Source of the DNA: Candidatus Falkowbacteria bacterium
GTDB lineage: Bacteria; Patescibacteriota; Patescibacteriia; Patescibacteriales; UBA12075
Direction of reading: 5' to 3'
NCBI GenBank assembly: GCA_003514005.1
Contig: DOSJ01000004.1
Span: 37,533 to 101,532, forward strand
Length of the DNA stretch: 64,000 nt
Shown here: positions 2,605-37,496 of the stretch, in pieces
Layout: each line of letters opens with the position of its first letter
Position numbering within the stretch: position 1 is the first letter of the stretch
The notes under the pieces: generated by a model
The model's input: only the letters and a program-made list of their open reading frames with translations
Database searches by the model: none
What the model was told of the DNA's origin: nothing
Made by a program: the position numbers and the translations under genes

Positions 2605-5600
2605 ATGCTTGTGCGCAAGAACAGATATCGAAAAATTGTGAGAAATTTTTCTCGATTTTTTGGTCATAAAAACAAAATAACCAGCCAGAGGCGTGTCTAC
2701 GTTTCTGGCTGGCGTTTTGTTTTCGCAAGCTTTATCATATTTTCGATTTTTGCTTATTTTTTTCCGTTCGGACGATTGTTAAATTCGATCAAAGCCTTTG
2801 GTGGGCAAACGGAAAAAATCAACCTGTATGCCAACTATATTCAATCTGAAGAAACGGATGACTTTGCGCAAGGCTGGCACAACAAAGAAAAAGCCGGCGG
2901 CTTGCAAGACCTTGGTCCGAATGCGGACATGCTCGAGTTTTCCGATGAAAATTCCGCTTTTTATTCTGGCGGAAATTTTAGCTTGATTGCCGGGAATTTT
3001 CAATTTTTAACAGAGGCGGCGAATAAGATTATTGAAAATGAACAAGCCGAAGATATTTTGGCAGAAGAACAAGGTGCGGAAATAGTTGATGAGTCTGCTG
3101 ACCTGGAAGATGACACCGAGTCTGAAGATGAAGTCAATTCAGGTGATGAAGCTAATCTGAATGAGGTAGACGAAAATGTGTTTTTGTCAGACGAACAGGG
3201 TGATGACAATTTTGATCAAGAAGAAGAAACCATAAATTCGGCTGATTCAAATTTGACAGAGGAAGCGAACAACATTGTTGACGATAGTTTTGTTGAATCA
3301 GAAAATCTGGATAAACCAGATGTTACTTCAGAAACGACTAAGAGTGAAATTAAAGACTCGGAAGAAACAGAACCGGTTGTAGAACCATTTGACAATAGCC
3401 AAACTCAGGTTTTGATTGAAAGTATTCCAGTCGTTGAAACGGAAACCGAAGTAGTCGGATCTAATGAATCAGGGGCAGAACCCGAGGCCGAGGTGATTGG
3501 GACAGATGAGTCCGTTGCCGAGCAGGTTGTTTCTTATTTAGACAAATTTAAAAAATATTTTATTGCAAAAGCCGCGAACGCGCAAAGCTTTGTCAGCGCG
3601 GAAATTAAAACTTTGGAAGATTTGGGGACATTTAAATCAGCGGTAATTAATCTTTCTTTGGCAATCCATTCCGGAGATATTGCCGGTGATGTTATTGCGG
3701 AAAATATGGATAGCCCGGAAGCTGATACTGCGGAGACGGGGCAATTAGAATCCGATTTTGATAATTCTTTAATAACTATTTGGTATTCGCTTGGCGAACA
3801 AGCCGTGGAAACTGATTCTGACGCGGCAAGCAATACAGATAATCTTTTGTGGCAAAAGCTGGATGTGATTCAATCGAGCAGTGTTTCCAATGCCCTTAAT
3901 AACGGATACTTCAGTTTTGCGGCGCCGTTTTTGGAATCTTGGCAGGATATAGATAATCTAAAAATTAAGCTGGAAGTTTTGGATAATGGCCGGAAAAACT
4001 TGATTTATCTGGATAGTGTTTGGGTTGAGAGCGTATTTGAACGTGAGTCCGAACTGGACAAGCTAAAACAGCGCCAGCGCTGGGAAGAGGCCTTGGACGT
4101 TTTGTCTGACAACTTGATATTCAAAGCCGGTGAAGGCGGCGAGTTGAAATTCCAATACAACAAGAATGAAGAGCGGATTTGGGAAACGCTGGGAGAGTTT
4201 TTGGGTATTGGCAATTTTTGGAAGAATGTTGATTTGGCAATCGTATTGTTTGATCCTTCCGGAGCTGAAACCAATATTGATCTGACTACGATATTTGAGA
4301 GCGACGGAATATTTACCGTTCGTTTGCCGGATACGCTCGCGCTTATGCCCGGCCAATATCGATTGAAGTTTTTTATCAAAGACAGCTCAGGTGAAGCAGT
4401 GGAGGAATTTGAAAAAGTACAAGAATTTTATTGGGGAGTTTTGGCAATGAATTTTAATAAATCCGAATACGAGGCCGCGGAAACCGGTTTTGTACAGATG
4501 GCGGTCCTGGATGACGGCGGACATACGATTTGCAACGCCGAGGTGAACCTTGAGGTCAAAGATGCAAATGGCGATACGCAAATATTTTCGACAAGCGAAA
4601 CCGATGAAGCGAAGCGAATTGTCGTTTCCAAAGAATGCGGTCCAGAAACGGTTACGAATGTACCGGATTATTCGATGCATTATCAGTTTGGTGATAAGGG
4701 AAACTATGAATTCAAATTGACAGCCAAGACTTCTGCCGGAGAGAAAACTATTTTTGAAACAATTGAGGTGAAAGATGTGGGCGCTTTTAGCGTGGAGCGT
4801 TTTGGGCCGACGCGTATTTGGCCGAAAGCGGATTATGGGATGAAGATGAATGTTCTTAGTAGAGAAGATTTTGTTGGAAGTATAGTTGAGACTGTTCCGA
4901 CAGGGTTTAAAATTTCTAATTTCCAATTTCTAATTTCTAATGAATTGCAAAATTTTCAATTTTCAATTGACGAGTTAGAGAATGGAAGCCAAATTACGAT
5001 TAAAGATGTGAATTTAAAAGCTGGGGAGGTTTTGGATATCAATTATACTTTTGATGCACCGGATCGGTCGCCGGAATTGTATCTAGTTGGGCCGCTCTCA
5101 ATCCAAATCGAAAACCCGAAAAGTCCCGATGGGACATCGGGTCTTGATCGAAAATCGGAAATCGAAAATCGCTCCTGGCAGATCGCGTCCGATTCGTTTG
5201 TTAAGCGAGCGCGAACTGTTATGTTTCAGGCTGGGGTTTATAATGACGTGGCAGGCGGGACCGGGCAGAATACCAATAATGACCATGTTTTGCCGGTTTT
5301 TAATTGGAAATTGGCAGAAAGCGGCGTTACGATAAAGAACGCTTATGTTGTTATGGAAACGCAGTTTGAGGCTTATAATACTACCGGTGTTGCTTATAGC
5401 GGCTATAAGCTTGGATTTGATGCTTGCGTTGAAGATTGTACAGCCGCGGCTTTTGGCGCCGGGGGCGGTCAAATAGCAGATGACAATGCTAATGCGCTTG
5501 TGTATGATGATACAGAATCAAACAACGGGCGCTTTCTTTTGGATGTGACGAACGAGGCACAGATTAGTGCCTATACCGGTGATGGCGTATTGATGGAGTC

Positions 5601-8600
5601 GCAGTTTGGCTATCGCTTAAAAAACAGCTCGGCTTATTCTTCGATAGCGAATGCCAGTGCAATGTTGATAGTCACGTATACATATGATATTGATTCGCCG
5701 AATATTACTAATACGGTTATTTATCCTCTGGATTCCGACACCGGTACGAACTATGGCTCTATGCAAGCCGCCCAAGCTGCTTGCACGGCTGACAGCAATT
5801 GTCCGACATTTTCTTATAATATGACATTGCCAGAGTGGTCGGGAGTCGCGACTTCAAGCAATAGGGTTTCTCAGTGGTTCAAAATGTTTGCCGCGCCTAC
5901 TGCCAATACGACAACTGATTTGCGCCCATATCTAGATATTCAGACCATAAATAACAATAGCAGTGCTTTTCATTTTGAAGAAGCTCTTTCTGGCAATGGC
6001 AGTACGCCGCCGATGTATTTTTCGGACTGGTCAGGATCCGGATACGCCGAGAATTTGGCGCAACAAACCGAACTATATGTCAATACGACTAATTATGTTT
6101 TGGGCGGCGAGGTTACGGAAACTTATATCGCCTCTAGCTCCGCGCCGGTAAAAACACGGACTGTGTCTTTTCCGATGGGTGTTATTTCAAACGGTAATAC
6201 CGTTGCTTTGAATAGTCAAACAGCAAATGTGTTTTTTCCGGAAAATGGAAGCGCGACTGGTACGGTTGATATCAAGAGTGCTTGGGTTAGAATAACGGCG
6301 AATGGACATACGGTTAGCGGAACTACCTATACCGCGAATGTATCGACAAAAACCGGAAATAATACTACTACCGGAAATCTGGCTTATCAGTTTCGCTCTT
6401 CGGTTGCCGTAACTAGTCCGGTTTTAAATATAATCCATATAATACCTTCAAGTGATTATACAGAGCTGGAAAGCGCGACAGCCACATCCGGTAAGGCGGT
6501 TGTCGTGAATCTGACATATCTTAACGCCTTGTTTAATGGCGCATCCGTGGAGCTTATGATTACCTATACTTATTCCAGCGAGCAGTCTGGGTATCTTTCC
6601 AGTTTGAATCTTTTTGGCGGACAAGCGGCAAGCGCGCCGGCAACTTCTACCGTTTTGGCAACCGCCAATTCTGTGTTTCCAGAATCGGCAAACAAGACTT
6701 TACTGGCAGCCGGTTTGCGCGCGCATTATTTGAACTCAAACAGCTCAGCCGCGATGGGCACTACCGTTCATTTGTCAACGGCAAATTTGGCGATTGGAAC
6801 ACCGAATTGCGGTTCACCGGCTTATCGGGCGATTCCTGATAGTGTTAATATGACAACAGAAATGCTAGTTAGCGTCAGCGGAGCAATGACAACGGATGAT
6901 AATCAAGCGTATTCCGCCTGCTATGCCAGTGATAATACGGCTATAACAACGGATTCGGCGAAAATGAACGGGACATTGACCTATACTTACGGCTGGACCA
7001 ATACGCCTCCGGTAAGCTCTTTTAATAGCGCAGTTTTTCGGCGAGACGGCAGCGGGACAGTTGATTTGGATGTAGAGGCTGATGATGCTGATGATCATGA
7101 CGTGCGCGCAAAGCTAGAGTTTGCTACTGGAACGACCTGCGTTTTTAGTGCGCCCGGTGACCCTTTGCTTGATGAAATAAATGAAAATATTACGGCTGAT
7201 TTTGCCGATCCATATATCGAGAATGATAATATTTATCAGATTGGAACTGCTAATGGCTATATTAAAACTGCCTCTGGCTCGAATTCGGTTTCTTTTGATT
7301 GGTTGGCAAAGCAAAATTTGGACAAGGTTGAGGGAACTTATTGCCTCAGGCTGACAGCGAATGATACGTTTGCCGATCAGAGCGCGCCGGCGACGACTAC
7401 CGTATATATTGACACTTTGCCACCAACTTCGCCTGGACAATTAAGTCTGAATAGCAGGACAGGGACTAGCGTAACTTTGAATTTTGGAGCTACAACGACC
7501 GAAACAAATTTTAATGAATATAAGATATTTTATAAAATCGCGAATGGCACGGATCCGACCGAGAGCGACAATATGTGGGCATCCTCTTCAGACATTAATC
7601 TGTATAATAAATTTTTTAATGATAAATCTACCACGACAATCAATGTTAGCTTGGTCGGCAGTACGACATATAGCTTTGCGATTTGGGCTTATGATACATA
7701 CGGCAACAAAGCCAGTTCGTCGCGGGTTGATATAATGACGAATGACGCGCCTTTGAGCAGTTTTAACACAGCGGACACAAAGCAAAGAAATGATGGCAGT
7801 GGAGTTGTTGATATTTCGTTGGAGATAGACGATTTGAACGATCATAATCAGCTGTCGGCAAAGCTTGAATACGCATTGGGAGCAGATTGTATTTTTGCTC
7901 CGGGATTGGACCCGCTCTTGGATGAAAATCCGGCGCATGTATCCGCGGATTTTGGCTTGCCCGGAGTGTTGAATGAGAATGAATATCAGATTGGTAATGC
8001 AACCGGCTGGATCATGACTTCGCCTGGAGCAAACACGATTAATGTGGATTGGCTTATGCGGCAAGACGAGGAAAATGCTGATAGCACATATTGTTTGCGT
8101 TTGACAGCTAATGACAGCTTTGATATTCAAAAGACCCTAGCAACCGCGACAATTACGTTGGATAATGTTAATCCAACTGCACCTGGCGCGCTAAGTTCGG
8201 CCGGAGTAACAACCAATAGCATTGATCTGGCCTATGATACTGATAATATTTCAAGCGACACAAACGAGCCTACTGTAAACGCATACAAAGTATATTATAA
8301 AAAAGCGGAGTCAGGGGTAACAATGAACGATACAGAAATCGATAGAACGCATTTTAATACCTACGATTTTAATGGCGCGACATCAACTTTGATAAGCGGA
8401 CTAGAGCAGAATACTTGGTATGTCTTTAATATTTGGTCTTTTGACGCGTATGGCAACATGTCAACAGGAACCGAAACTGCGATCAAGACCAGCGCGACAA
8501 TCAAGAATGAATCGTTAACTTTTGTAAATCCGCGAACAGAAGGGTTGGATACAAACGTTGCGGTAGCGCGACCGGAAAATGAATGGAATTTCCGAGCCGT

Positions 8601-8991
8601 AGTTTCGGAAACAAACGGTTATTTTGCGCTGGATACCGTAAATCTGCGCTTGGCAAATCAGACCGATGATTCTTCGCCATTTTCCGATTTGGTTTTCTCA
8701 TGGGATCAAACGTCCGGCGTATTTACGGAAATAGGCGCGGATATCGGTAACGCGGCAGAGCTTGGTACAGGAAGCAGTGCAGATTGTCTGGGCAATATTT
8801 GTACTTTGGATTTTTATATAGTATTTACAAAAAATTATTTGGCTACCAGCACAGCTTATGCGGTTGGACTTTTGAGCACGAATGACAGCGCTACGACCGA
8901 TGAAGATATGTATTCAAATTTTTACCAAGTACGTTATCCGTTTGTCAGCCAGACGCATTATCGTTGGCGGAATGATGATGGAGGGGAGTAG
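2605..8991 (+). CDS. Giant membrane-anchored surface protein (2128 aa), paralogue of the 5230-aa ORF
   Basis: 6.4-kb uninterrupted ORF. It has a basic N-terminus plus one hydrophobic helix, and a ~170-aa Asp/Glu-rich tract. A ~255-aa module (aa ~606-862) is shared with aa ~158-402 of the 5230-aa ORF. It carries two cassettes of a ~130-aa 'DGSG..D...YCLRLTAND' domain plus an FN3-like 'LNFGATTTExNFxEYKIxYK'. It ends 'HYRWRNDDGGE*'. Confidence 0.9.
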   Translation: MLVRKNRYRKIVRNFSRFFGHKNKITSQRRVYVSGWRFVFASFIIFSIFAYFFPFGRLLNSIKAFGGQTEKINLYANYIQSEETDDFAQGWHNKEKAGGLQDLGPNADMLEFSDENSAFYSGGNFSLIAGNFQFLTEAANKIIENEQAEDILAEEQGAEIVDESADLEDDTESEDEVNSGDEANLNEVDENVFLSDEQGDDNFDQEEETINSADSNLTEEANNIVDDSFVESENLDKPDVTSETTKSEIKDSEETEPVVEPFDNSQTQVLIESIPVVETETEVVGSNESGAEPEAEVIGTDESVAEQVVSYLDKFKKYFIAKAANAQSFVSAEIKTLEDLGTFKSAVINLSLAIHSGDIAGDVIAENMDSPEADTAETGQLESDFDNSLITIWYSLGEQAVETDSDAASNTDNLLWQKLDVIQSSSVSNALNNGYFSFAAPFLESWQDIDNLKIKLEVLDNGRKNLIYLDSVWVESVFERESELDKLKQRQRWEEALDVLSDNLIFKAGEGGELKFQYNKNEERIWETLGEFLGIGNFWKNVDLAIVLFDPSGAETNIDLTTIFESDGIFTVRLPDTLALMPGQYRLKFFIKDSSGEAVEEFEKVQEFYWGVLAMNFNKSEYEAAETGFVQMAVLDDGGHTICNAEVNLEVKDANGDTQIFSTSETDEAKRIVVSKECGPETVTNVPDYSMHYQFGDKGNYEFKLTAKTSAGEKTIFETIEVKDVGAFSVERFGPTRIWPKADYGMKMNVLSREDFVGSIVETVPTGFKISNFQFLISNELQNFQFSIDELENGSQITIKDVNLKAGEVLDINYTFDAPDRSPELYLVGPLSIQIENPKSPDGTSGLDRKSEIENRSWQIASDSFVKRARTVMFQAGVYNDVAGGTGQNTNNDHVLPVFNWKLAESGVTIKNAYVVMETQFEAYNTTGVAYSGYKLGFDACVEDCTAAAFGAGGGQIADDNANALVYDDTESNNGRFLLDVTNEAQISAYTGDGVLMESQFGYRLKNSSAYSSIANASAMLIVTYTYDIDSPNITNTVIYPLDSDTGTNYGSMQAAQAACTADSNCPTFSYNMTLPEWSGVATSSNRVSQWFKMFAAPTANTTTDLRPYLDIQTINNNSSAFHFEEALSGNGSTPPMYFSDWSGSGYAENLAQQTELYVNTTNYVLGGEVTETYIASSSAPVKTRTVSFPMGVISNGNTVALNSQTANVFFPENGSATGTVDIKSAWVRITANGHTVSGTTYTANVSTKTGNNTTTGNLAYQFRSSVAVTSPVLNIIHIIPSSDYTELESATATSGKAVVVNLTYLNALFNGASVELMITYTYSSEQSGYLSSLNLFGGQAASAPATSTVLATANSVFPESANKTLLAAGLRAHYLNSNSSAAMGTTVHLSTANLAIGTPNCGSPAYRAIPDSVNMTTEMLVSVSGAMTTDDNQAYSACYASDNTAITTDSAKMNGTLTYTYGWTNTPPVSSFNSAVFRRDGSGTVDLDVEADDADDHDVRAKLEFATGTTCVFSAPGDPLLDEINENITADFADPYIENDNIYQIGTANGYIKTASGSNSVSFDWLAKQNLDKVEGTYCLRLTANDTFADQSAPATTTVYIDTLPPTSPGQLSLNSRTGTSVTLNFGATTTETNFNEYKIFYKIANGTDPTESDNMWASSSDINLYNKFFNDKSTTTINVSLVGSTTYSFAIWAYDTYGNKASSSRVDIMTNDAPLSSFNTADTKQRNDGSGVVDISLEIDDLNDHNQLSAKLEYALGADCIFAPGLDPLLDENPAHVSADFGLPGVLNENEYQIGNATGWIMTSPGANTINVDWLMRQDEENADSTYCLRLTANDSFDIQKTLATATITLDNVNPTAPGALSSAGVTTNSIDLAYDTDNISSDTNEPTVNAYKVYYKKAESGVTMNDTEIDRTHFNTYDFNGATSTLISGLEQNTWYVFNIWSFDAYGNMSTGTETAIKTSATIKNESLTFVNPRTEGLDTNVAVARPENEWNFRAVVSETNGYFALDTVNLRLANQTDDSSPFSDLVFSWDQTSGVFTEIGADIGNAAELGTGSSADCLGNICTLDFYIVFTKNYLATSTAYAVGLLSTNDSATTDEDMYSNFYQVRYPFVSQTHYRWRNDDGGE

Positions 8992-9123: not shown

Positions 9124-9954
9124 TCACAAATATTTTTCTATTATCACCCTATAATTTTTACAAAAATCATCAATAAAATTTTGGTCGTTAAAGAAATTTT
9201 TCAGATCATAGGCTAATTTTTGCGGTGTTACATTTTTTTCGATAAGAAGTTTGATTTTATTTTTTAGTTCAGCCATATTTTTTATGCCATCAGTTTTTGC
9301 AAGTTCGCTCCAATTTGGCTCTATATCATTTTGTAAATACCAAAACAGATCATAAAAATCCCTGCCTTTGATATTTATTTCATTTTTATCGCCTTTGAAC
9401 CAGCTTCGGTTTAATAATGCTCGAATTTTTCCGGTCATTAAATATTCAAGAGAGTAGTTTTTTACAACTGTGTTGTAGCCGAATTTTGAAATTGGATTAA
9501 TTTCGATTTTTGGCTTTGTATATTCGGACTTGGAAAATTCTAGCTTAACATATAAAAAATCGCTTTCAGAAATATTTTTTGATAATCCTAAATTATTCAA
9601 GACTGGAAATTTTAAGTATAATCTTTTGTCGGATTGAATTTTTACATCAATTTCCAAAAGCCCGTTTATTTTAAAATAGTTTACCAATTCGTCGGATAAT
9701 AATTTAAGATCCAATTTTTGAAAACTGTTTGCCGGTAAATCAAAATCTAAATCTTCAGAAAGTCTTGGTAGGCCGTAGCAGATTCGCAAGCAAGAACCGC
9801 CGGTAAAGATGAAATCATTATATTTCTTATTGCTATAAAGAAAATTTAAAACCGGATATTGCAGAAATTCCTTTAAAAAATTTATGATTACAAAATTGGG
9901 AATTCCTAATTTTTGTTTTTCATTTACAATTTCTTTTAAAATATTGACTAGCAT
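9124..9954 (-). CDS. AbiEii/AbiGii-family nucleotidyltransferase toxin (type IV TA)
   Basis: 'FTGGSCLRICYGLPRLSEDLDFD' matches the GGTAL..R.S.DIDF signature of DUF1814/AbiEii. It lies immediately downstream of an AbiEi-like gene. Confidence 0.8.
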   Translation of the reverse strand: MLVNILKEIVNEKQKLGIPNFVIINFLKEFLQYPVLNFLYSNKKYNDFIFTGGSCLRICYGLPRLSEDLDFDLPANSFQKLDLKLLSDELVNYFKINGLLEIDVKIQSDKRLYLKFPVLNNLGLSKNISESDFLYVKLEFSKSEYTKPKIEINPISKFGYNTVVKNYSLEYLMTGKIRALLNRSWFKGDKNEINIKGRDFYDLFWYLQNDIEPNWSELAKTDGIKNMAELKNKIKLLIEKNVTPQKLAYDLKNFFNDQNFIDDFCKNYRVIIEKYL

Positions 9955-9960
9955 AGATTT

Positions 9961-10596
9961 TTAATAATACATTTTTTTAATTAAAGCAATTGCCATTTTA
10001 ATTTTGTTACTTCTGGCAAACACAGCGTATCCCGCCAATTCGTCAAATTCTTTGGCAGATATATTTTCCCAGTTTATCCTTAATTCTTTGATCTCATTTT
10101 CGTTGATTGGTGTGTTTTTGATAAATCGCAAATAAAGATAATCAAAAACCGCTTTGGACTTGGTTGCAACCATAATCGGCGCTGTGTCGATAAATTTGGC
10201 TTCGTATCCACAAAACAATTTAGGATTTATAGTATAATATCTGAACACACCTAATTTGTTTTTGTATTCCCTGGTGCTTTTGTTGGTGACGGATGTAATG
10301 GATCTAACTGGTTCTGATAAAAGCTGATATTTTGACATTATATATTCCAAAGAAAGATAGGACGGAGTAACCAACTGGCCGGCGGCATATTCTAGAAAAG
10401 CATCTTTGTTTACTTCATTTTTATATTGTTCGCTGAAGGTGTATAAACCGTTTTTAAGCGCAATTAAATCGTCACTATTTAGCCAGTATTTTATATTGGC
10501 ATCAAGAGTATTTGCGTTTTTTTCAAAATTTTTTAAAATATCTTTTGAAAAAATCCTTAATTTTGCTGTTTTATTTTTGATTTCGATTAATTTCAT
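9961..10596 (-). CDS. AbiEi-like antitoxin / transcriptional regulator
   Basis: 211-aa ORF ending 6 nt upstream of the AbiEii toxin start. Size and position are typical of AbiEi. A decayed homologue at 59391-59962 shares 'YLS(L/F)E(Y/W)'. Confidence 0.65.
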   Translation of the reverse strand: MKLIEIKNKTAKLRIFSKDILKNFEKNANTLDANIKYWLNSDDLIALKNGLYTFSEQYKNEVNKDAFLEYAAGQLVTPSYLSLEYIMSKYQLLSEPVRSITSVTNKSTREYKNKLGVFRYYTINPKLFCGYEAKFIDTAPIMVATKSKAVFDYLYLRFIKNTPINENEIKELRINWENISAKEFDELAGYAVFARSNKIKMAIALIKKMYY

Positions 10597-10658: not shown

Positions 10659-10687
10659 GTAGAGACGCCCAATTTGGGCGTCTCTAC
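10659..10687. repeat. Perfect palindrome GTAGAGACGCCCAA-T-TTGGGCGTCTCTAC
   Basis: 14-bp arms. Same GTAGAGACG...CGTCTCTAC family as 9059-9088, on the other side of the TA cassette. Confidence 0.9.
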
Positions 10688-10703
10688 GGCAAATGTTTAT
10701 TAG

Positions 10704-10712
10704 TTATCCACA
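10704..10712 (+). promoter_or_regulatory. Perfect TTATCCACA 9-mer (DnaA-box consensus), function unknown
   Basis: Exact match ~140 bp upstream of the -10 at 10844. Confidence 0.4.
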
Positions 10713-10843
10713 AAAATAATTATTTTAATATTAGTAAAATCGTATTTTTTTAAATGCGATTTTTTGTTTTATTTTTTGGCTAATAATAAACTTTTATTTA
10801 TTAATAATTCGGAAAGAAATATTCGCTTTTTAAGCATAAAATA

Positions 10844-10852: not shown

Positions 10853-10870
10853 ATAGTTAGAAAAATGTTA

Positions 10871-10902
10871 TATCTCGAGTATCGAGATGAGCTAATATTA
10901 AA
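10871..10902 (+). promoter_or_regulatory. Conserved leader: hairpin TCTCGA-GTA-TCGAGA plus TGAGCTAATATTAAA
   Basis: Second copy of the block at 1918-1949. It ends 12 nt (hairpin 28 nt) before the ATG at 10915. Confidence 0.55.
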
Positions 10903-10914
10903 GATTAATTTTCA

Positions 10915-13900
10915 ATGTTTAGAACGCTAAAAAATAACTGCAAAAAGTTACTGTTTGGGGTAATTATTTTTTTGTTTATAACATTTATTTTTTCGGCAAT
11001 TCCCAGTTCTGCGTCAGATAAAAAAATAATTTATGGGAAGCAGGACATGTCCCTAGAGTTAGTTTCTGAAATTGGCGATATGAAGAGCAATAATTCCGAG
11101 TTGGAACTAAAACTTAAAAAGAAGCGTAAACTGCCCGGAGCTGTTGGCGCTTTTTTTAAAGGTTTTTTTGTGGATGAGTTTAAGAAAGCGGAAATTAGCG
11201 CGGAAATGGTAGAAGGCGAGAGTGAAGAAAGTGATTTTTTTGTTGAAACTTTTTATCAGGAAGACGGTGAATTTTCAGTTCAATTAAAGCCAAAAGGACG
11301 GCAGGTAAAACCAGGCTTGCATAAAGTAGTTATTACTTTGAAAGACGAAAAATTAACCGGTAATGAAACAATCAGTTTTGTGCAGGATTTTAGTTGGGGT
11401 GTTCTGGCTTTTAATAGTAATAAATCAATTTATCAACCGGATGAAAATGCGTATTTGCAGATGGGGGTTTTGGATGAGCTTGGACACACAGTTTGTGGCG
11501 CTGATCTGGAGATGATTATTACCGCACCGGATAAAGGTAAGGCGGTTTTAAGTACAAAAAACGGTTTGATTATCCGCAACCCGGAATGCGGGCCGGATAA
11601 TGTTATTTTAACTCCGGATTATTACGCGAATTATGGTTTGGGAGAGATTGGTGAATATACTGTGAAATTAATCGCTACTACGGAAAAAGGTTCTTGGGAG
11701 ATAAGCGATGTTATTAGCGTGCAGGCCGAATCGCCTTTTGTTGTCGAGCGCATCGGGCCGACGCGTATCAATCCGACAGCGGAGTATGGGATGATGGTGA
11801 AGATTAGGGCGAATGAGGATTTTAGCGGAAACCTTATCGAAAAAATGCCGGAGGATTTTAAAATTTCTAATTTCCAATTTCTAATTTCTAATCAATTACA
11901 AATTACAAATTACAAATTACAAATAGATGATGCTGGAAAAAATTTGATTTTGGAGAATATTATTCTTAAAAAAGGAGATGAGGCAACATTGATTTATAAG
12001 TTTGACGCGCCGGATATTTTTCCGGAATTTTATTTGCTGGGTCCGCTTGAAGCAATCTCCGCCCAAGGCGGACCAGCCATAGGCTGGGAAAATCGCAGCT
12101 GGCAGATCGCGTCGGACGGCGAGAATCAGGTGATTGTGGCACAGAAGATTGCGATTGATGCCGGTACGGCGGACACTGTAAATTGGACAGAAGCGGTTAA
12201 GGCGACATCCACGCTATTTAGCGGAGGACAGAAATATTTTGTGTATGTGACGGCTGGTTTTTCAGGAAGTGTGGCCGGTGTAATTTCGAATTTTGAAATT
12301 TTGTATGGAAGCACGATCCAATATTCCGGCTCAATTGAAGCATCCGGGGATCAAGCGAATGACGCGATGCAGATTTCTTGGTTTGATGTAATGGATCAGG
12401 CGGCAACCCCTGAGGACATTATTTTACGTTATCGCACTGTTTCCGGAACTTCGTATATAATGAACGCGCAGATTGTGGCAATGAATATCAGTAACCTGGA
12501 AACGACTGATTGGAAATATGCCGTCAATTCAACATCGCGCGCTTTAACTACAACCGTAACCGCGGACGCAAACATTACCATGAATAACGCTGATGGCGTC
12601 AAGGATTGGCTGGTGTTTGCGATGGCGGAAATTGATATTTCAAGCGCGTTAAGACAATATGTCAGCCAAATATACAATGGCGCAAGCGCCTCTATGTCAT
12701 TTCAAAGAGAAGGTGAAAATACGAATGAATTTTTACCGCACGCCATATATCGACCATTTGATAACGTGGCGCAAAATACGGTTTTTAGTATTCGCAATTA
12801 TTCAATCACTTCCAATGTTAACACGCACTTGCGCAGCCGCGTTTTTGCTTTGAATTTGAACCGTTTTGAAAGCTTTAAAACATATTATGCAGATCTTCCC
12901 TCGACCGCGATCAACGGTACCTGGACGGTGATAGGTAATTTGAATAGCGGGGGAAATTACGCCCCGCAGACAAGTGGCGACCAACTGATCTTTTCTTCGT
13001 TTATAAATGATATTACGGCAAATACGAATGAATCGGACGATCGTTTGCAAGTGAATGGGGTAACAGTGCCGACCAGCTGGAGCTGGGGGCAGTCGCCGGC
13101 CGGATACCGGACCGGTTATGACGCCGCGGACGAGCCGGTACATAATATTGTCGCAAGAGTAAGCATTCCGACAACCGGACAGACAATCAGTTTGGACGCG
13201 ATTGAGGTGCCCAATTCCACTCAGGTCGGCGACGAGGTGAGCTTGGCCGCGTTCAGTACACGGCTCAAGAATATTAATCGGCCTTTTGGCGTCGTTAATT
13301 CCAAATCTTTCCGCGCGGATGGATCCGGGGTTGTTGATTTTGCTTTTGACGTATCGGATCGCGACCTGGATGACGCGCGCGTTAAAGTCGAATATGAACA
13401 AGGAAGCACCTGCGCCTTTAGTTCGTCTGCCAAGACAACTATCAGCACGGTTGACGCCGATACTACCGCTACTTATGGCGACCCCAAGGTGGATAATACG
13501 AATGCTTATCAAGTCGGTACCACGACCGGTTGGATTACGACTACCTTCGGTACGAGCACGGTCAATTTTGATTGGACTAGTCAGGCCAATATACCTTATG
13601 CATCCAGCACTTATTGCGTGCGCCTGACCGCAAATGACGGAACAAATGATCAGCTGGTATCGGCGACTACAACTGTTTACATCGACAATTTTGATCCGAT
13701 AATTTCTGGTGTTGCGATTCCTGATCGGATGTACAAGATTGGCGACACCATGACCGCGACTATCACGCTAGCGACGGCGGAATCGGATGCACTGACAATT
13801 GGTACTAGCTCTGAAATAAATGGCGGCCCAATATTTAATTTACAGAAAATTAACAACACGACTTTTACTGCCGATTATCTGATAGCAAGCGGACAGACAG

Positions 13901-16900
13901 ATCGCGCGAGCAATACCATCCCGTTTGAAATATCCTTGGTGGATCCTTATCTTAACCAAAGCGCGTCATCATCCGGATCATTCAGCGGCGGATCGATTGA
14001 TGCTAACGCTCCTGAGATAACAGCGGTTGAAATTGTTAATCTGATGTATGGTATAGGAGACATTATGACAGCAACGATAACGACTGCCTTGGATGCCAGC
14101 CTTTATCTTTTGGAGACATCTTCGCTTAATGCCGCAACGAGCGCGACCGCGAATCTGACAAAGATCAATAACACAACCTATACGCTGGAATATACGGTTG
14201 CCGAAGGCAATGTTGATCGCGCAACCGGAACGATACCGTATCATATTGTTTTGCGCGATTCTTATGGCAATATCAATGCGCCGTATGCCGGTGTTTTTGC
14301 GAATGGATCGCTGGACGCGCATGCTCCGATTATCCAGGCCGTTTATTTGAATAACGGTGCTTATGGTATAAACAGCAGTTTGCCGATTATCATTGATACG
14401 GCGGAAACGGGTTTGGCTTTGGGAGAGAGTACCGTGAACGGAAAGACATTATCCGGCTTTTCGGACCTAGCAGATACGACTTATCAGGCATATTATATCG
14501 TGGCCGAAGGCGATATGGACAGAACGGCCGGGAATGTGCCGATTTCGATAATCATGCGCGATAATTATGGCAATGAGAACGCGGCCTATGTTACACCGGC
14601 CGCGAATACGGCTTCAGTGGATGCGCACAAACCCGAGATACTTTCGATCGTTATCCCAAATCTTGTTTACAAAATCGGCGATACGATTCGCGCGACTGCG
14701 ACGGTAGCGGCTGACGTGGCTGCCTATACGCTTGGAACGACAACTGTTAATAATGTTGCGGCAAGTAATTTGCAAAAATATGATAACTCAACTTATACTT
14801 TTGATTATACGGTCTTGTCCGGACATACGGATCGCTCGGCTGGAACGATTCCGTTTTCGCTGATGTTAAAAGATCAGCTGGAGCAGTATAATGATCCCGC
14901 CTTTACCGCGATTACCGCCAATACGGCGTCAATCGACGCGAATGCGCCGGCGGTTTCAGCGCTTAGTTTTGCGCCGTCTTCCGGAGTTCTGAAAATCGGC
15001 GATACGGCAACCGCCACGATTACGGCCGCGAGCGCGGAAACCGGATTGAGCGCGGGCGCGACAATCAATATTAATAGCAAAGACGCAAGAGCCAGCTTTA
15101 CTGAACTTGGTGGTGGAGAGTATCGGATAGTTTATATTGTCGCAGAAGGCGACGTTGATCGTCCGGATAATGATGATTTGCCGGTCAATATTATTTTACG
15201 CGATAGCGCAGGTAATGAATCCGTTGCTTTTCAATCTTCTGATCCGACCAATCGTCCGGGAGTCGATGCCAATCGTCCGGTCATTTCCAATGTAACTTTT
15301 AATATCACATCCGGCGTACTCAAAATCGGCGATACGGCAACAGCGACGATTTATACCGATGGGACAGGGTATTTGGCTGATACGATTACCGTAAACGGCA
15401 TTGATGTTTCCGGCACGTTAGTTTCGGCCGGAGGAAATGATTATACGATTACCTATACCGTGGCCGAGGGACACGATGATATTTTAGACGCCAACGATTT
15501 GCCGATTAATATAGTTTTGAGCGATCCGGCCGGAAATGATTCGATTCCATATACGACAGAAGACGCCAGTAATCGTCCGGGCGTTGATGGACACAAACCG
15601 GTAATCTCCAATGTCAGTTTTAATATCACATCGGGTGTGCTCAAAATCGGCGATATTGCCACGACCACGATTTTTGCGGATGCGTCCGGATATTCGGCCG
15701 GCGCGATAACTATCAATGGTGTTGATGTGTCCGGCACATTGGCTTCAGCCGGCGGCAATGATTATACTGTCAGCTATATTGTTATTGAGGGAAATAACGA
15801 TATTTTGGATGCAAACAATCTGCCAATCAGCATCGTGCTTCGGGATGTGGCCGGAAATAATTCCGTTACTTACGTAACGATTGATTCCGCGAATCGTCCG
15901 GGAGTGGATGCCCATCGTCCGGTAATCAATTCAGCCGTATTTGTCCCGTCATCGGGAATTTTGAAAATCGGCGCAAGCGCCACCGCTACATTATCTGTCG
16001 CGGATGCAGAAGAAAATCTCTCGATTATCAGTGCGACAATCAACTATATTAATGTTGCATCCAGTTTTTTTGAAATCGGTTCCGGTGATTACCGCTTGGT
16101 TTATACCGTTAGCGAGGGCGATAACCCGATTAATGATATTGCCGACTTGCCGGTTTATTTTGTTGTATCCGACGCGGCTGGGAATTATTCACTAGCTTTT
16201 AATTCTTCTGACCCCTCTAATCGTCCAGGAGTTGATGCCAGTCAGCCGATTATTTCCAATGTAATTTTCAATATCACATCGGGTATGCTCAAAATCGGCG
16301 ATACAGCAACGGCAACGATATATTCCGACGAGACAGGATACTCAGCTGGCACGATTACAGTAAACAACGTTGACGTATCCGGCACGCTGGCTTCGGCTGG
16401 CGGCAATAATTATACCGTTGCTTATACTGTGGCAGAAGGGCACGATGATATTTTGGATGAGAATGATTTGCCGATTAATATCGTTTTGAGAGATTCTGCC
16501 GGAAACGATTCGAATCCTTATACGACAGAAGACGCCGGCAATCGTCCGGGTGTTGACGGGCACGCGCCGGTTATTTCCAATGTCAGCTTCAATATCACAT
16601 CCGGTTTGCTCAAGATCGGCGATATAGCGACAGCGACGATTTCCGCGGATGCATCCGGCTATTTGGCCGGAGCGATTACTATTAACGGCGTTGACGTGAG
16701 CGCAAGTTTGGCTTCGGCCGGCGGAAATAATTATACGGTCAACTATATCGTCAGCGAAGGACATAATGATATTTTAGACAGTAGTGATTTGCCGATCAGC
16801 GTCGTACTTGTTGATACGAACGGTAATAATTCCTCGACCTATACGACGGCCGATGCGGGCAATCGTCCGGGTGTAGACGGTCATGCGCCGACTGTGCCGG

Positions 16901-19900
16901 GAAACCTTGGTTTTTATAGTAGGGGAAATAACTCCATTACGCTTAATTTTGGCGCGACAACAACAGAAAGCAATTTTTCCGAATATGTAATTTATTATAA
17001 GGCGGGAACAAGCGGAGTTTCCGAGAATGACAGCCGTTGGGATTCGGGCGATGACGGACATCTAGGGCATATTCTTTTTAGCGGATATGGGTCAACGACG
17101 ATAACGGGACTGCTTTCCCAGACTGCTTATGTTTTTAATATCTGGGCATATGACCAAGCCGGTAATAAGACACAGGCGACAGAGGAACTTTCGGCTGCGA
17201 CGAATTACTTACCGCTTTTATCTGATAATCTAGAACAAAGATTGAATGATAATTTTACGGTTGTTTCCAACAACGCTTGGGCGATCGATCAATCAATGGT
17301 ATTGTCGGCCAGCTCAACAGATCCGGAAGGCGGATATTTTGATTACTATTACGAAGTCATCAGCGCGACCGGCACGCTGACAACCGCGACATCGGTTCCG
17401 GCATCCAGCTGTAATTCCGGAACCGGATTTTTGCAGTGTTCGGAAAAGATTTGGAAACAATCCACCGGTCCGGATTGGTATAACGAGGAATGGCTGTATC
17501 GCAAGCAAATAGTCATTGACTCGGATTTAATCGAAGATGATATGCAGGATTTTCCGATTTTGACCAATACGGTTGATGATGATTTGCGGAGAAATGCCCG
17601 TTCTGACGGACACGATATTTTGTTTACGGCGGCCGATGGCGTTACTAAGCTTTCGTATGAAAGAAAGGTATATGATTCAAGCGATGGCGAATTGATTGCC
17701 TGGGTAAAGACTGATGTTTCTTCTTCAACAGACACGATCGTTTATATGTATTACGGAAACGCGGATGTCGCTTCGGACCAGTCAAGCGCGTCCGGCGTTT
17801 GGGATTCGAGCTACTTGGGTGTTTGGCATATGGATGAGGAGCCGACCGGATCTGCGGATGATATCAAAGATAGTTCCGGCAATAGCCGCCATATGACTTC
17901 GTTTAATATGGGAGCTAGTAAGCGTGTCAAAACCGATACCGGCTATGCTTATGAATTTGATGGCGCAGGCGATTACCTGGAGGACGCGGATGGCGAAAAT
18001 TATATTAATGGACTTTCGGAGTTTACGGTAGAGCTATGGCTGAAATCTGATTTGATTGCGACTGATCGCGGATTTATTATCGGTTCAGCCCCGGCTGGAA
18101 ACGATAGTTTTTTTACCTTGCGCTATGATGATGCCGGAGTTAACGGCGGCGGCAATGATGTGATTAAAGGGGCTATTACGACGACCGTAACTGGCGAGAT
18201 TCAGATGGAAAGTTCGAGTTTTTCCCAGACTACCGATTGGCAGCACTTGGTTTTTCGCTGGGAAAGTGGCCGGCAATATGAGCTTTTGGTTGATGGCGAT
18301 TTGGATACTCCTACTTCTAATGATCCGGCCGGCACAGGTCTTACTTCCGGCGCGTCGACTTTGCGCATCGGGCAGGGCGGAAAAGATATTACAACCGCGC
18401 TTGGTTGGGATGGTTTGATTGACGAGGTCCGCATTTCCAATGTTTACCGTTCCGATGCTTGGGTAAAAACAGCTTATAACAATCAATCCAATTTGGCTTC
18501 GTTTGCCCTATTTGGCGCGCAGGATGCCGTCCGCATATTCAATCTTCCCGAATCGGATGACGGCTATATCTGGCAGGTGATGGCTTGCGACCAGCTGGGT
18601 GCCTGTTCAGAATGGGTAAAATATAATGAAGAGTCGCCGAATTTCAAGGTGGATAATACGCCGCCGACAGCGCCGGGCAGTTTAAGCGAAAATTCCAAAA
18701 CATCAACTAGCGTTACGTTTAACCTGTCGGGCACAAGCACGGAATCGTTTTTCAGCGATTACCGCATTTATTACAAAGAATATGGCGGCGATGTTGTTTC
18801 TACTAATGATTCGTATTTCGGGACATCATCCGACGCGAATTTGTCAAATATCCTTTTTAATGGAGCGTCTACCACTACGGTTCCATTCTTGACCGCCGAT
18901 ACGGAATACCAGTTTAATATTTGGGCTTTTGATGAATCCGGCCAAAGCGCGAGCGCTACGCCGATTGTTGTTACGACAGAGATCGGCACAAATCGTCCGA
19001 CTGGTTTGTTTGACTCGGTCGAGCAGAAGCGGGACGGTTCCGGTAGGATTGATATTGGGATAATCGTGAATGACCTTGATAACAACCCTTCCCGGGCGCG
19101 GATTGATTATGTGTCGGGCGTGGCATGCAATTTTTCTTCGCCTTTGGATCCGTATCTTGATGAAGACGGCGCGAATATTTCAGCGACAAATTTACCGGCC
19201 CCTTTGATTGATAATGCTTCAGCGTACCAGGTTGGTACCGGAAGTGAATGGATTTTGACAGCGCCTGCGGCGAATAATGTAGGCTTTGATTGGCTGTCTG
19301 CGCTTAACTTGTCTGGCGTTGAAGGAAACTATTGTCTGCGTCTGACCGTGAATGACGGAGTATATAGCCAGCTGGTTCCTGCGACATCTACCGTGTATAT
19401 TGATAATGCTAGGCCAAGTTCGCCCGGCGCATTGTCATTGGCTGAAAAAAATACTGAAACCCTGGTGTTGACATTTGGGGCAACCTCTACGGAAACCAAT
19501 TTTGCCGAGTACAAGATATTTTATAAGATCGCGGATGGTACTGCGCCGGATGAATCAGACAGCGTCTTGTCATCAAGTACGGATATTAATTTGTCTGATA
19601 AATTTTTCAATACCGCGGCAACGACAACAATCAGTGATTTGATGGCCGGCACTATATATAGTATTGTGATCTGGGCGTACGATGATTATGGTAACGCCGC
19701 CAGCTCTTCGTATGTGAATTTTACCACAAACCATATTCCCTCCGCGCCGACAAACCTTCGACAATACAAAGCGGACGGAGTAACGGAAATTGTAAACAAC
19801 GGCTGGACGATAGAAGATATCGCGACGATACAAGCCGAGGTTAATGACGGCGATGCCGGCGAAAATATCAGTCTTTATTTTGAATTACTTGCGAATAGCG

Positions 19901-22900
19901 ATACGTTTAGGACTGCGACGACCGTGCCATTCAATGCTTGCGCGCCGGATGATTCCTGGTCGGATTGCGCAAGTAAAATTTGGAAAGTAACATCCGTGGC
20001 CGGCGACTACTCAGTAGCTCCTTTCAGCGGAACAACTAGTCCGGCGAACTTGCCAAATTCCAACAGCGGATTTAAATGGCAGGTTATTGCCTGTGATAAT
20101 GACAACGTCTGTTCGGAATGGACGCGTTATAATGACGCGATTCCGAATTTCAAGATTGATTTTATTGCGCCGACCGCTCCCGGCGATTTAAGCGTTGCCG
20201 CTTATACGAGCAATAGTATCACCTTGAATTTTGGCGCAACCACGACAGAAGAGAATTTTAAAGAGTATATAATTTATTACAAAGAGGGCACAAGCGGCGT
20301 AAATGAAACAAACACAAAGCACGGTTCCAGTACAGATGGCAATTTGGCGCATATTTTATTTAATAGCGCGGCTACAACGACTATTAGCGGTTTGAATGCT
20401 GGCACCGCTTATTTTTTTAATATCTGGGCGTATGACCAGGCCGGAAATAAAAATTATGCGGTTTATGAAATTAGCACGACTACGAATAACAAACCGCAAA
20501 GCAATATTGTATCAGCTATGCAAAAAACCAATGGTACAGGAGGCGTTGATATTGTAATTTCAGCCAATGACGCGGACGTGGAAAATCTGTTTGCTATGTT
20601 GGAATTCGCGACCGGAACAGATTGTTTATTTACATCTGCCGGAGACCCGACGCTTGATGAAATTGATGCTAACGCGACCTCGAGCCAAGCCGATGCCAAG
20701 ATCGAAAATGATAACGCTTATCAGATTGGTAATGCGTCCGGATGGATCGTAACGACGGGCGGAGCAAATGCGGTTTCTTTTGATTGGCTTTCTAATACGG
20801 ATTTACCCAATCAATCGGGAACATATTGTTTGCGAATAAGAACAAATGACGGCCATGAAGACAGTGTGTTTGCCACAACCACGCTCATGATCGACAATCT
20901 CAGTCCGACCGCGCCTGGAAATTTAAGCCTGATTGAAAGCCATGGAAATTATTTTGTTCTTGGTTTTGGCGCGACCAGCACGGAAACGAATTGGTTGCGC
21001 TATCGGATTTTTTATAAGCAAGGCGTATCCACGGTCAATGAAAACGATCTGGAATTAATTGATTCTGATTTGGCTGATAAAAATTATAACAATACGGCTA
21101 CGACTTCTGTTTCCGGTTTGCTTGCGAATACGCAATACAGCTTCCGCGTTTTTGCCTATGATATTTATGGCAATAAAGCGCAATCCGGACAAGAAACGTT
21201 TACTACCAATTCTTATCCGTCTTCCTCGTTCAATTCCGCGGCTCAGAAAATCGACGGTAGCGGAAGAGTGGACATTTCTTTGGAAATATACGATACGGAT
21301 GGGGACAATTGTTATGCCAAGCTGGAATTCGCGACCGGAACGGCGTGTGATTTTTCTAGTCCGGGCGACCCGGAGCTAGATGAAGGTTCAGAAAATATTT
21401 CTGTTGATTACGAACCTTTGGGGATCGCAAATACAAATGAATATCAAATCGGCACAGCGGGTGCGCCGATTATCACAGACCAAGGTTCCAATACCATTGA
21501 TCTGGATTGGCTGTCAAAAAGCAATTTGCCGACAGCGGACGGCGATTATTGTCTGCGCCTGACCGTTACGGACGGGTCGGATACGCATAGCGCGACAACG
21601 ACGCTTACGATTGACAACGCCGTTCCGCAAAGACCGGCTGATTTAACGATCGGTTATGCCGATGTCAGGACAATTCGGCTTGATTTTGGTTCGGCTGGCA
21701 GTGATACGCATTTTAAAGAGTATAAGATTTTTTATAAAGAGGGCGTAAGCGGCGTAGCGGAAACCGATAGCGCATGGGACAAGAATGACGACGCTGCCCT
21801 TGGCATAGAGGATTTTGGCGCAGCCGCGTCAACGACAATCGGCGGTCTTTTGCCTGATACGGACTATGTTTTTAATATTTGGATTTATGATGATTTTGGC
21901 AATAAGTCTTTTGCAAGCGGCGAGATATCCAGCTCAACCTTGGAAGCGGTCAGCGCAACCTGGCGCGAGACCGAGGATACGCCTGATCCGACTACTGGAG
22001 TATATGCTTCAAAAGAGCAGACTGTCCGATTGCGCGTGGCAGTAGCCAATTCCGGGACCTGGAGTACCGAAGATTATCGGTATGACTTGCAATATGGCAT
22101 TAAAGATGGAACTTGTGAAAATGTTTCCGCTTGGACTTTGGTGCCGGCAACTGCCGCGGGTGAACATTTTGAAATGAAATCAAGTGTATATTTTATTGAA
22201 AATGCGTCAACAACGCCGCGTTTAACTGGCGACGGCTATGCATTCCGACCAGGATATATGGTACAAGCACCGTTTAGTCAGACCGGAACGATTACGCTTT
22301 ATGGAAATGAGTATTCGGAATTGGAATATACGATAGCCGCGACAACTGATGCCAGTCGTAGCGCAACATATTGTTTTCGCGCGGTTAATCAGGGCGCGGG
22401 TGTCGATGATTATGGGGTTTATCCGGAATTTTCTTTGACGCCACCTCCCTTAAGCGATTTTGTTTCAGCGGTACAGAGAGACGACGGCAGCGGACGCGTC
22501 GATGTTCGTTTTACAGCCGATGATTATAGTAATCAGAATTTGCGTCTAAGAATGGATTATGCGACCGGAACCTTGTGCGACTTCAGCCAGCCGGGAGACC
22601 TAACATTTGATATTTTGAATGAGAATACAAGCGCAACCTATGGCGACCCCTTGATTGATAATGACGCACCTTATCAGATCGGAACCGGTCTTGCGTATGT
22701 TTTGACGCAATATGGCGAAAATACCGTTGATTCTGATTGGCTTTCCGGTGGCGATCTTGGCGGGATTGAAGGAGAATATTGCCTGCGTTTAACTGCTAAT
22801 GATCTTTTTGACGACCAAACCATACCGGCGACTACGACGGTAATGATAGATAACAAAGCGCCGACAGCACCGGGAAATCTGAGCCTGATGTCAAAGACAA

Positions 22901-34209: not shown

Positions 34210-34210
34210 T

Positions 34211-34292: not shown

Positions 34293-34299
34293 AAACTAT

Positions 34300-35521: not shown

Positions 35522-35539
35522 TAAAAAATTGAAAGTTGA

Positions 35540-35608: not shown

Positions 35609-35616
35609 AGTAAAAA

Positions 35617-37488: not shown

Positions 37489-37496
37489 GAAAGTGC

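Follow-up and report, generated by a model that had tools for sequence, protein, structure and literature searches.

A 36-nucleotide heptamer-repeat block identical in two diverged giant surface protein genes of a Candidatus Falkowbacteria bacterium

This study concerns a block of 36 nucleotides shared by two giant surface protein genes, G1 and G2, in a 64,000-nucleotide stretch of a Candidatus Falkowbacteria genome (NCBI assembly GCA_003514005.1, contig DOSJ01000004.1; the whole stretch is hereafter called the window). We found that the block is identical in the two genes, which are otherwise diverged throughout their common module, and that it is a heptanucleotide simple-sequence repeat (SSR), not a coding sequence conserved for its peptide. 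Comparison with orthologous sequences led us to favour, with moderate confidence, a recent short-tract conversion or template switch from G2 into G1 as the probable source of the identity. The identity island can be explained without a special function, and it would be wrong to take it for a conserved motif, a regulatory site or a proven recombination switch. The block is fairly ordinary and of a known heptanucleotide SSR type; of more interest are the heptamer arrays and hairpins that pervade this genome and its relatives.

The identical block and its repeat units

G1 (2605-8991, 2128 aa, an open reading frame (ORF) with an fn3 match) and G2 (10915-26607, 5230 aa, an ORF characterised by a Pfam scan) lie on the forward strand, as do all features within them described below. 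The exact 36-mer TTTAAAATTTCTAATTTCCAATTTCTAATTTCTAAT occurs twice on this strand, at 4906-4941 in G1 and at 11857-11892 in G2, and both copies are in codon phase 0 (codons 768-779 of G1 and 315-326 of G2) and encode the peptide FKISNFQFLISN. No further match with up to three mismatches was found in the 64-kb window, and shuffled sequences lead one to expect none. The block is the longest exact direct repeat of the whole window and the sole long exact match between G1 and G2, the runners-up being 17, 17, 15 and 14 nt; in the aligned module outside it, the longest identical run is 15 nt. The shared N-terminal module, which consists of two immunoglobulin (Ig)-like β-sandwich domains, spans 4219-5244 in G1 (defined by alignment, an AlphaFold2 model and Foldseek) and 11179-12174 in G2 (defined by alignment, with a weak Pfam MG2 match at G2 aa 169-209). 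Over this module (G1 aa 539-880 and G2 aa 89-420), the identity is 40% at the protein level, 53% at the nucleotide level and 38% at third codon positions, which appear to be saturated.

When the identity was calculated in sliding windows of 12 codons along the G1/G2 module alignment, as the preliminary description of this DNA had proposed, only the windows over the block exceeded 0.9. Identical residues outside the block use the same codon in 53% of cases, which gives P ~5e-4 for twelve of twelve identical codons, and an estimate from codon usage gave P ~8e-5. The block stands out as a real identity island, not one due to chance, and its borders are sharp: 36/36 nt are identical in otherwise diverged paralogues, as in a gene-conversion tract. 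Its GC content is 14% as compared with ~44-48% for the two genes (~44% for G1). The exact match, the common peptide and the equivalent position in the module, as well as the nucleotide-level identity amid diverged flanks, were thus confirmed as first described. Equally long identical stretches elsewhere in the module, which had been named as a sign of general recent conversion between G1 and G2, were not found; the latter explanation is ruled out, since the other exact matches are all 17 nt or shorter. Protein-level selection on the peptide was likewise rejected, because all 12 codons are identical (P ~1e-4 to 5e-4) and the orthologues encode other peptides.

In the reading frame the block is TTT AAA ATT TCT AAT TTC CAA TTT CTA ATT TCT AAT. 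Its first nine nucleotides, TTTAAAATT (4906-4914 in G1, 11857-11865 in G2), were identified by orthologue comparison as the F-K-I codons of a conserved P-x-x-F-x-I motif, and form the seed of an (AATTTCT)x4.4 array at 4911-4941 in G1 and 11862-11892 in G2. Tandem Repeats Finder (TRF) reported period 7, 4.4 copies and 91% matches for both arrays, the second unit being the variant AATTTCC in each; such head-to-tail tandem 7-nt units, longer than expected by chance, are what defines an SSR. The earlier statement that the block is made of AATTTCT heptamers is supported, with the correction that its first nine nucleotides are codons of the family motif and not insert; the informative part of the block is the 27-mer TCTAATTTCCAATTTCTAATTTCTAAT. 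In a perfect (AATTTCT)n array the seventh codon would be TAA, and the T>C change in unit 2 makes it CAA; a perfect array continued beyond the block would read TTC TAA, and the arrays of both genes stop there.

Each gene contains a second array downstream of the block. In G1 this is (AATTTTC)x2.6 at 4951-4968, which encodes NFQFS and was detected by TRF, with the unit and frame of the first array of the orthologue L013. In G2 it is a perfect (AATTACA)x4.4 array at 11894-11924 (TRF), whose unit, rotated to ACAAATT, is the reverse complement of AATTTCT (AGAAATT) with a G>C change that removes the in-frame TAG of such an arm; the same unit recurs in intergenic hairpin arms at 51379 and 51508. The G2 block and second array together give a weak, mismatched hairpin (minimum free energy -10 kcal/mol, z = -0.5, one mismatch per heptad), and the G1 copy gave no significant hairpin relative to shuffles (z = -1.1). 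A further in-frame array, (ATCGAAA)x3.6 at 5147-5171, encodes KSEIENRS in the next variable stretch of G1, as found by TRF and the module alignment.

We modelled G1 aa 599-885 with AlphaFold2 from an eight-sequence alignment (mean predicted local distance difference test score (pLDDT) 70, predicted template modelling score 0.71). The model contains two β-sandwich domains, with the block peptide at model residues 170-181, and places strands at residues 171-179 (the block peptide), 182-184 and 188-193 with pLDDT ~84. The block peptide is accordingly modelled as a lengthened β-hairpin of the second Ig-like domain and not as coil, so that of the loop proposed earlier, the length-variable Ig-like site stands but the unstructured loop does not. 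Foldseek matched the model to generic Ig-like folds (integrin leg domains, Fab, pilins and complement MG domains), and the Pfam scan of G1 and G2 gave only fn3, DUF2341, CopC, MG2, NDNF and Ig-type matches. Through the arrays the ORF stays open, the length of the site ranges from 177 to 294 nt among orthologues and the model has a β-hairpin there, which is the behaviour of a permissive in-frame insertion.

The array site in orthologues and the source of the identity

The module was detected in 63 loci of GTDB genomes at 44% identity or less, all of them Patescibacteria-type metagenome-assembled genomes (MAGs), some mislabelled, and in 19 metagenome proteins. In the basal form of the family the spacing from ER.GPTRI to FDAP is 216 nt and free of repeats, and in many lineages it is 243-294 nt. 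The extra DNA consists of heptamer arrays directly after the P-x-x-F-x-I motif that start within the F-K-I codons. Indeed, L005, L006 and L077 also have TTTAAAAT at the seed position, with arrays starting in those codons, and L022 shares the codons. The array of L077, the closest match of G1 (48% identity), is TTTAAAATTGGAAATTGGAAATTGG followed by a small GC hairpin; that of L005, TTTAAAATTAAAAATTATGAATTAAGAATTAAG, begins TTTAAAATTAAAAATTA and continues with AATTAAG units. Furthermore, we found AATTTTC x4 plus AATATCC x4 in L013, AGAATTA-type first arrays with partly complementary second arrays in L034, L003 and L037, AAATTGA x8 in L066, ATACTGA x4 in L012, and ATTTCTG-like and AATTTCT units in L017 and L004. 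The F-K-I site is thus a recurrent birthplace of arrays in orthologues across Parcubacteria, with a unit that differs by lineage. The exact 36-nt block was absent from all of the ~75 orthologous loci, an outcome that the preliminary description had counted as evidence against its own reading, though related AATTTYY arrays occupy the same site in L004, L013, L017 and L078 (the last from an assembly with many fragmented ORFs).

A neighbour-joining (NJ) tree was built from the module upstream of the array, without bootstrap and with distant relatives; it placed G1 with L005, L006 and L007, and G2 with L004, L017, L001 and L002. The G1-G2 distance is 0.64, versus 0.53 from G1 and 0.43 from G2 to their nearest orthologues, and the closest database match of G1, L077 (P0007), lies outside the tree. 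G1-type characters are a long N-terminal extension, also present in P0007, and SFVKRARTV after SWQIASD, also present in L005-L007. By these comparisons G1 and G2 are old paralogues. The arrays are distributed differently: the nearest relatives of G1 possess a DP[FY]G loop, missing from G1, together with AAATTGG or AATTAAG arrays, and AATTTCT-like arrays are found in the G2 relatives L004 and L017. The block therefore unites the two paralogues, while the flanks group each of them with its own orthologues. Directly 3' of the block, however, G1 keeps the AATTTTC array encoding NFQFS, as in L013.

This discordance is the basis of the explanation that we favour. The TTT-AAA-ATT (F-K-I) codons, which open the length-variable β-hairpin, repeatedly seed 7-nt arrays with a lineage-specific unit, and both paralogues would already have carried an AATTT-type array in the same register before the event. 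A recent short tract of the G2 array would then have overwritten part of the G1 array, by ectopic gene conversion or by a replication template switch across ~7 kb, with the repeats as the sole homology; since the flanks hold no identical stretch longer than 15 nt, the homology was presumably provided by the arrays themselves. Selection for the reading frame would filter the survivors, in that the T>C change repairs TAA and the arrays end before the second TAA, and the array would be tolerated because its amphipathic peptide merely lengthens a surface β-hairpin. The 36-bp identity could support a rare RecA-dependent deletion, as a side effect and not as a purpose. As in short-tract ectopic conversion between paralogous surface genes, a sharp identity island is common to the paralogues within the genome and absent from the orthologues of one of them, but here a tandem repeat encloses the whole, very short tract, there is neither flank homology nor a donor cassette, and template switching is as likely as a RecA-mediated event. 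The preliminary description had offered recent gene conversion, insertion, or selection on the DNA or RNA; conversion is the best supported of the three, and RNA structure is not supported by the folding of either copy.

Several observations weigh against a transfer from G2 into G1. The nearest identical stretch is 14 nt long and lies ~100 nt upstream, and no identical stretch exceeds 14-15 nt, which would be insufficient for homologous strand invasion; as RecA-mediated conversion normally needs flank homology, the event would have to have been templated by microhomology or by the arrays. The best G1 orthologue is 48% identical, and there is no close relative by which the event could be dated or polarised; the grouping of the flanks comes from a tree without bootstrap support. 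Moreover, a 35-mer that includes AATTTCC is present in intergenic spacers of L068 and L069, as are 29 nt of it in L070. Finally, G1 and G2 differ just 3' of the block, so that a conversion tract must end inside the repeat region.

In five orthologous loci (L001-L004 and L062), the ORF is interrupted at or near the array site. L001 has a TCA>TAA-type nonsense change at 1345-1420 as compared with L017; L002 (3090-3190) and L003 (2150-2260) have insertions of GC-rich palindromic elements (CHCERPK.../...SLLAMT) together with frameshifts; L004 has an intergenic-type hairpin with stops at 3110-3257; and L062 apparently has a long insert with an in-frame stop at ~10660-10840. All five loci are on short or low-coverage contigs, and the interruptions may represent pseudogenes, split genes or assembly errors. 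A split gene, encoding an N-terminal protein and a giant protein with a translated spacer between them, was considered and rejected: the breaks of L001-L004 fall inside a β-sandwich domain, on short or low-coverage contigs (e.g. cov 2.4), and we took them for decay or error. No significant folding was seen for the coding arrays of intact orthologues (z = -1.7 to +1.0), and the interrupted L004 copy folds strongly (z = -5.6). In P0005, P0006, P0008, P0010, P0015 and P0016, the two-domain N-terminal module is a separate protein of ~340-400 aa that ends ...LLGPL.F[YH][ED], which suggests that fission or fusion has produced a true gene boundary in several relatives, ~30 codons past the array site.

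Alternative explanations of the identity

Among the alternatives, the one that survives best, although we regard it as unlikely, is that the block belongs to a dispersed palindromic element similar to the Rickettsia palindromic elements (RPEs). The block would form the left arm of a small mobile or otherwise copied hairpin, in which a CAAAATTTTG-type centre joins an AATTTCT array to a GAAAATT array. Elements of this sort normally occupy intergenic spacers in Patescibacteria; here, insertion or copying would have brought one in frame to the same permissive position in G1 and in G2, and its stop codons would have been lost afterwards. When we compared the first 29 nt of the block with metagenome sequences, three contigs otherwise unrelated to the window were matched (L068, L069 and L070). 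By blastn, L068 and L069 carry 35/36 nt, including TTTAAA and AATTTCC, and L070 carries 29 nt, in all cases between genes: the L069 copy directly follows a stop codon 40 nt before pgk, that of L068 abuts the start of an aminoacyl-tRNA synthetase gene, and that of L070 lies upstream of a pilin-like gene. Since these copies are intergenic, their C is not explained by avoidance of stop codons, which favours a dispersed element or a preferred sequence. L068 contains a second related copy. Common to its two longer copies are ...TCTAAACAATTTCCAATGA..., a GAAAATT array and a CAAAATTTTG-like centre, and each copy occupies its spacer as far as the next start codon; L012 has the similar arrangement X-AATTTCC-X-X-AATCAATTT, where X is AATTTTT. 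Further support comes from the second array of G2, complementary to the block at 6/7 positions, from the site of the G2 relative L004, which folds as noted above with AATTTCT and AGAAATT/GAAAATT arms and stop codons, from the GC-rich palindromic elements at or near the site in L002 and L003, and from a GC-rich mini-hairpin common to G2 and L004. In-frame palindromic insertions are known for the Rickettsia RPEs (PMC10969869).

However, neither another copy of the block nor another AATTTCT array was found in the 64-kb window or in the 8 kb upstream. The first nine nucleotides of the block are the F-K-I codons of the family, so that the boundary of the supposed element coincides with host sequence, and neither terminal inverted repeats nor target-site duplications were seen. 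The hairpin with defined ends and a target-site duplication that characterises RPEs and miniature inverted-repeat transposable elements is thus lacking: G1 has no significant hairpin, G2 has the weak one described above, the coding arrays of intact orthologues fold like shuffles, and the left end consists of host codons. In addition, AATTTYY units are the commonest in these genomes, perfect arrays of them recur in the unrelated L005, L013, L068 and L078, and L068 alone has four AATTTYY-type arrays in 10 kb; with so restricted a repertoire, some exact recurrence in a collection of 241 million records may be due to chance. A broader form of the same idea, to which we likewise assign a low probability, is that Patescibacteria harbour an actively propagating class of heptamer-armed hairpin elements that would fill spacers from stop to start codon and repeatedly colonise in frame the same permissive sites, in Ig-domain giants and in ArgS. 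The 35/36-mer TTTAAAATTTCTAATTTCCAATTTCTAATTTCTAA would be one member of this family, and the G1/G2 identity would result from dispersal or from element-directed homogenisation. If a dispersed element were the correct explanation, it would add an RPE-like phenomenon to the candidate phyla radiation (CPR).

Parallel evolution without transfer, in which AATTTCT arrays arose independently from the same F-K-I seed and converged through homogenisation and avoidance of TAA, is in our judgement very improbable, despite several facts that make it conceivable. The conserved codons fix both the seed and the register, and a perfect array must break at the seventh codon and end no more than two codons from the end of the block. 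Moreover, three distant orthologues (L003, L005 and L034) have the 18-nt sequence GAATTAAGAATTAAGAAT in common, which stops at the point where TAA would follow, so that the reading-frame constraint sharpens the edges of such identities. In the ArgS of L068, too, an AATTTCC array with this register has given rise to ISNFQFPISN independently. On the other hand, at least eight units occur at the site among ~14 array-bearing orthologues, which makes the same unit in both paralogues unlikely by independent origin; seven single-base changes can remove the TAA, and both copies use the same one; and the clade of G1 has other units and the DP[FY]G loop.

We consider it equally doubtful that the identity was kept because the DNA or RNA is functional, as a binding site, an internal promoter, a ribosome-pausing hairpin or a slippage contingency tract. 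Sigma-70-like sequences are present in both copies (TTGAGA-16-TAAAAT at 4886-4913 and TCGAAA-16-TAAAAT at 11837-11864, with TAAAAT within the block), but such sites are not enriched (39 versus 30.8 +/- 6.5 in shuffles), and an internal promoter was rejected accordingly. RNA structure was rejected as well, because the two coding copies and most coding arrays of the orthologues fold no better than shuffles, and since the units of the orthologues differ, no specific sequence is conserved. A leader motif is common to both operons (1909-1949 and 10862-10902). As for slippage, the frame would shift with a single slip of 7 nt; the early position typical of contingency genes is found in G2 (codon 315 of 5230), whereas the G1 tract is not early (codon 768 of 2128); and the ORF is broken at or near the site in L001-L004 and L062. 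The array of the block is, however, short (4.4 units) and interrupted, the second array of G2 being perfect with 4.4 units, and the breaks in L001-L003 are a point nonsense change or palindromic insertions and not slips of 7 nt in either direction, nor are those in L004 and L062 such slips. A comparable case is NeuO of E. coli K1, which likewise has a 7-nt unit in the coding region of a surface-related gene, where only three-unit changes keep the frame; NeuO is reported to be phase-variable via its heptanucleotide repeats (PMC13001214), whereas the 4.4 interrupted units of the block show no length variation in 26 assembly blocks.

This last result comes from a population comparison at the level of consensus assemblies. 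In the index, 39 assembly blocks contain the AbiEii protein encoded between G1 and G2. Each of the 26 blocks with contigs >50 kb has the exact 2128-aa G1 protein, and the gene order of a helix-turn-helix (HTH) gene, G1, AbiEii, the 211-aa gene and G2 was found in all 19 long-contig blocks with the upstream HTH gene. Three loci (L071-L073), one of which is NCBI GCA_003453605.1 contig DMOD01000015.1, match the window at 100% identity along 19,954 nt, both copies of the block included. As a result, neither array-length variants nor G1/G2 deletion chimeras were seen in these 19 to 26 long-contig assembly blocks, no copy-number polymorphism by slippage between strains was seen in the consensus sequences, and phase variation and deletion chimeras were rejected.

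The same data bear on the suggestion that the block is a recombination point. The two copies are direct, in the same frame and 6951 bp apart, so that a crossover would give an in-frame fusion, with the hypothetical deletion junction GTTCCGACAGGG-block-CAATTACAAATTAC composed of the left flank of G1, the block and the right flank of G2. Between them lie, on the reverse strand at 9124-10596, the AbiEii toxin gene (9124-9954, Pfam AbiEii E = 2.9e-24) and the adjacent 211-aa gene (9961-10596). A length of 36 bp is reportedly near the minimum for RecA-dependent exchange in E. coli. The geometry of a ~7-kb deletion proposed in the preliminary description is therefore correct, but the function found no support, as the search for chimeric junctions gave none in the 19 long-contig HTH blocks and a metagenome scan with the block yielded no contig with G1 or G2 flanks. 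The block as a recombination point is only a theoretical possibility. The remaining candidates were dismissed: a -1 frameshift site, because TTTAAAA is outside the X-XXY-YYZ register by our own reading of the sequence; a CRISPR repeat, because there are just two copies, 6951 bp apart and within ORFs; and a phage origin, because the 29-mer had 0 matches in viral contigs.

Heptamer arrays in the genome and its relatives

The window is rich in period-7 arrays, with one unit per locus according to TRF. In 950 kb comprising the window and related Patescibacteria loci, we counted 41 period-7 arrays, while none of the other periods between 4 and 12 had more than 8. Half of the 41 are inside long ORFs, and the commonest units are AATTTTC, AAGAATT and AATTTCT. 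The intergenic arrays of the window occur in inverted pairs and give long hairpins that extend from at or just past a stop codon to just before the next start, with z = -7 to -11 overall, one of them having arms of period 8. Examples are those at 34205-34300 (z = -7.4), at 35520-35612 (z = -7.5) and, between tRNA-Pro and tRNA-Leu, at 43880-44015 (z = -10.6), and further tandem-array hairpins lie at 37492-37660, 39939-40036 and 51379-51530. The repeat type of the block thus indeed builds intergenic hairpin arms, as had been noticed, but from other units. Possible roles of these hairpins are as terminators, mRNA stabilisers or in translational coupling.

A housekeeping gene behaves in the same manner as the giant genes. 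The argS gene of the window (47176-48966) contains an in-frame (AAGTAAG)x4.4 array at 48648-48678 that encodes ELSKKLEVRSEKD in a loop after ARMQSIIRK, and the ArgS of L068, an unrelated Patescibacteria contig, has (AATTTCC)x4.4 (86-116) in the same loop after the ARxxSI motif.

According to PMC4679880, Mrazek et al. (2007) found heptanucleotides to be the most frequent type of long SSR in the majority of the prokaryotic genomes that they surveyed, and proposed that the arrays arise by polymerase slippage over 7 nt. The arrays described here resemble these long 7-nt SSRs, including the cyanobacterial heptamers and the TAACTGA repeats of Beggiatoaceae, in their head-to-tail arrangement of 2 to 6 or more copies, in the strong over-representation of period 7, and in being mostly intergenic, often abutting a stop or start, with a few in ORFs at the protein periphery, limited by stop codons. 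The intergenic TAACTGA arrays reported by MacGregor (2015) extend into ORFs only where these encode the periphery of the protein, owing to the stop codons that they create (PMC4679880). They differ in that each locus has its own unit and there is no single genome-wide heptamer, in that intergenic inverted pairs form long hairpins that bridge the spacers, and in that arrays recur at the same permissive site of orthologues across a group of phylum level. The Rickettsia RPEs are comparable in that repeats of an intergenic kind become part of proteins at positions that the fold can accommodate, in unrelated genes (here the giant proteins and ArgS), but they are ~150 bp long and form defined families with a conserved peptide (PMC10969869), whereas the block is a 27 to 36 nt heptamer array grown from host codons, with no defined ends and with weak or no palindromy in the window. 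A literature search found no paper on such heptamer arrays in CPR.

In these CPR bacteria, heptamer arrays are the dominant class of tandem repeats and are paired as hairpin arms across spacers. They arise time and again at the same AT-rich codons of orthologous genes, are translated once stop-free and lengthen surface β-hairpins, which makes them a cheap route to sequence novelty in giant surface proteins. PARCELs (palindromic amphipathic repeat coding elements) are much longer protein-domain repeats and have been reported in TM7. The arrays resemble them in that palindromic repeat DNA codes for amphipathic peptides in surface proteins of small-genome bacteria (PMC2996958), a resemblance only. 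For annotators of Patescibacteria MAGs there is also a warning: where low-complexity blocks are identical, genes seem split or short ORFs are called at such sites, the cause can be a repeat artefact that arose in evolution or in assembly.

A GC-rich double mini-hairpin, CCGCCCAAGGCGGACCAGCC..(A/C)GGCTGG, was found by sequence comparison at 12059-12087 in G2, where it is in frame and encodes AQGGPAIGW. It matches L004 3130-3158 at 28/29 positions, the L004 copy lying in the loop of the heptamer arrays and in another reading frame, and is a second kind of repeat DNA embedded in the giant genes.

Upstream of the HTH-G1 unit and upstream of G2, the leader motif mentioned above, (T)ATCTCGAGTATCGAGA..CTAATATTAAA, includes a small hairpin and is 80% identical over 41 nt; its presence at both units suggests common regulation. 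Between the HTH gene (1958-2371) and G1, which starts at 2605, there is a perfect 38-nt inverted repeat (2362-2399/2497-2534). Its arms are 97 nt apart, and it could be a long hairpin or an invertible segment. A palindromic element of ~125 nt is present at 47052-47179, just upstream of argS, and at 52995-53120; its stems are conserved (30-nt and 22-nt exact matches), its centre is variable and it has no Rfam match. The intergenic stretch 51240-51370, upstream of an aminoacyl-tRNA synthetase gene (51564-52964), is GC-richer and structured-looking (GGCACCCG...GGCGCCCCGGTTGCGATCGGGG...) and had no Rfam match at the gathering threshold; the Rfam scan of the window returned two tRNAs only. Finally, a gene at 9040-9690 of L078 gave a weak Pfam match to a Y1 transposase (IS200/IS605 or RAYT-like). 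It is flanked on one side by fragments of a G1-like gene and on the other by the gene of another giant fn3 protein, and may be relevant to the mobility of hairpin elements.

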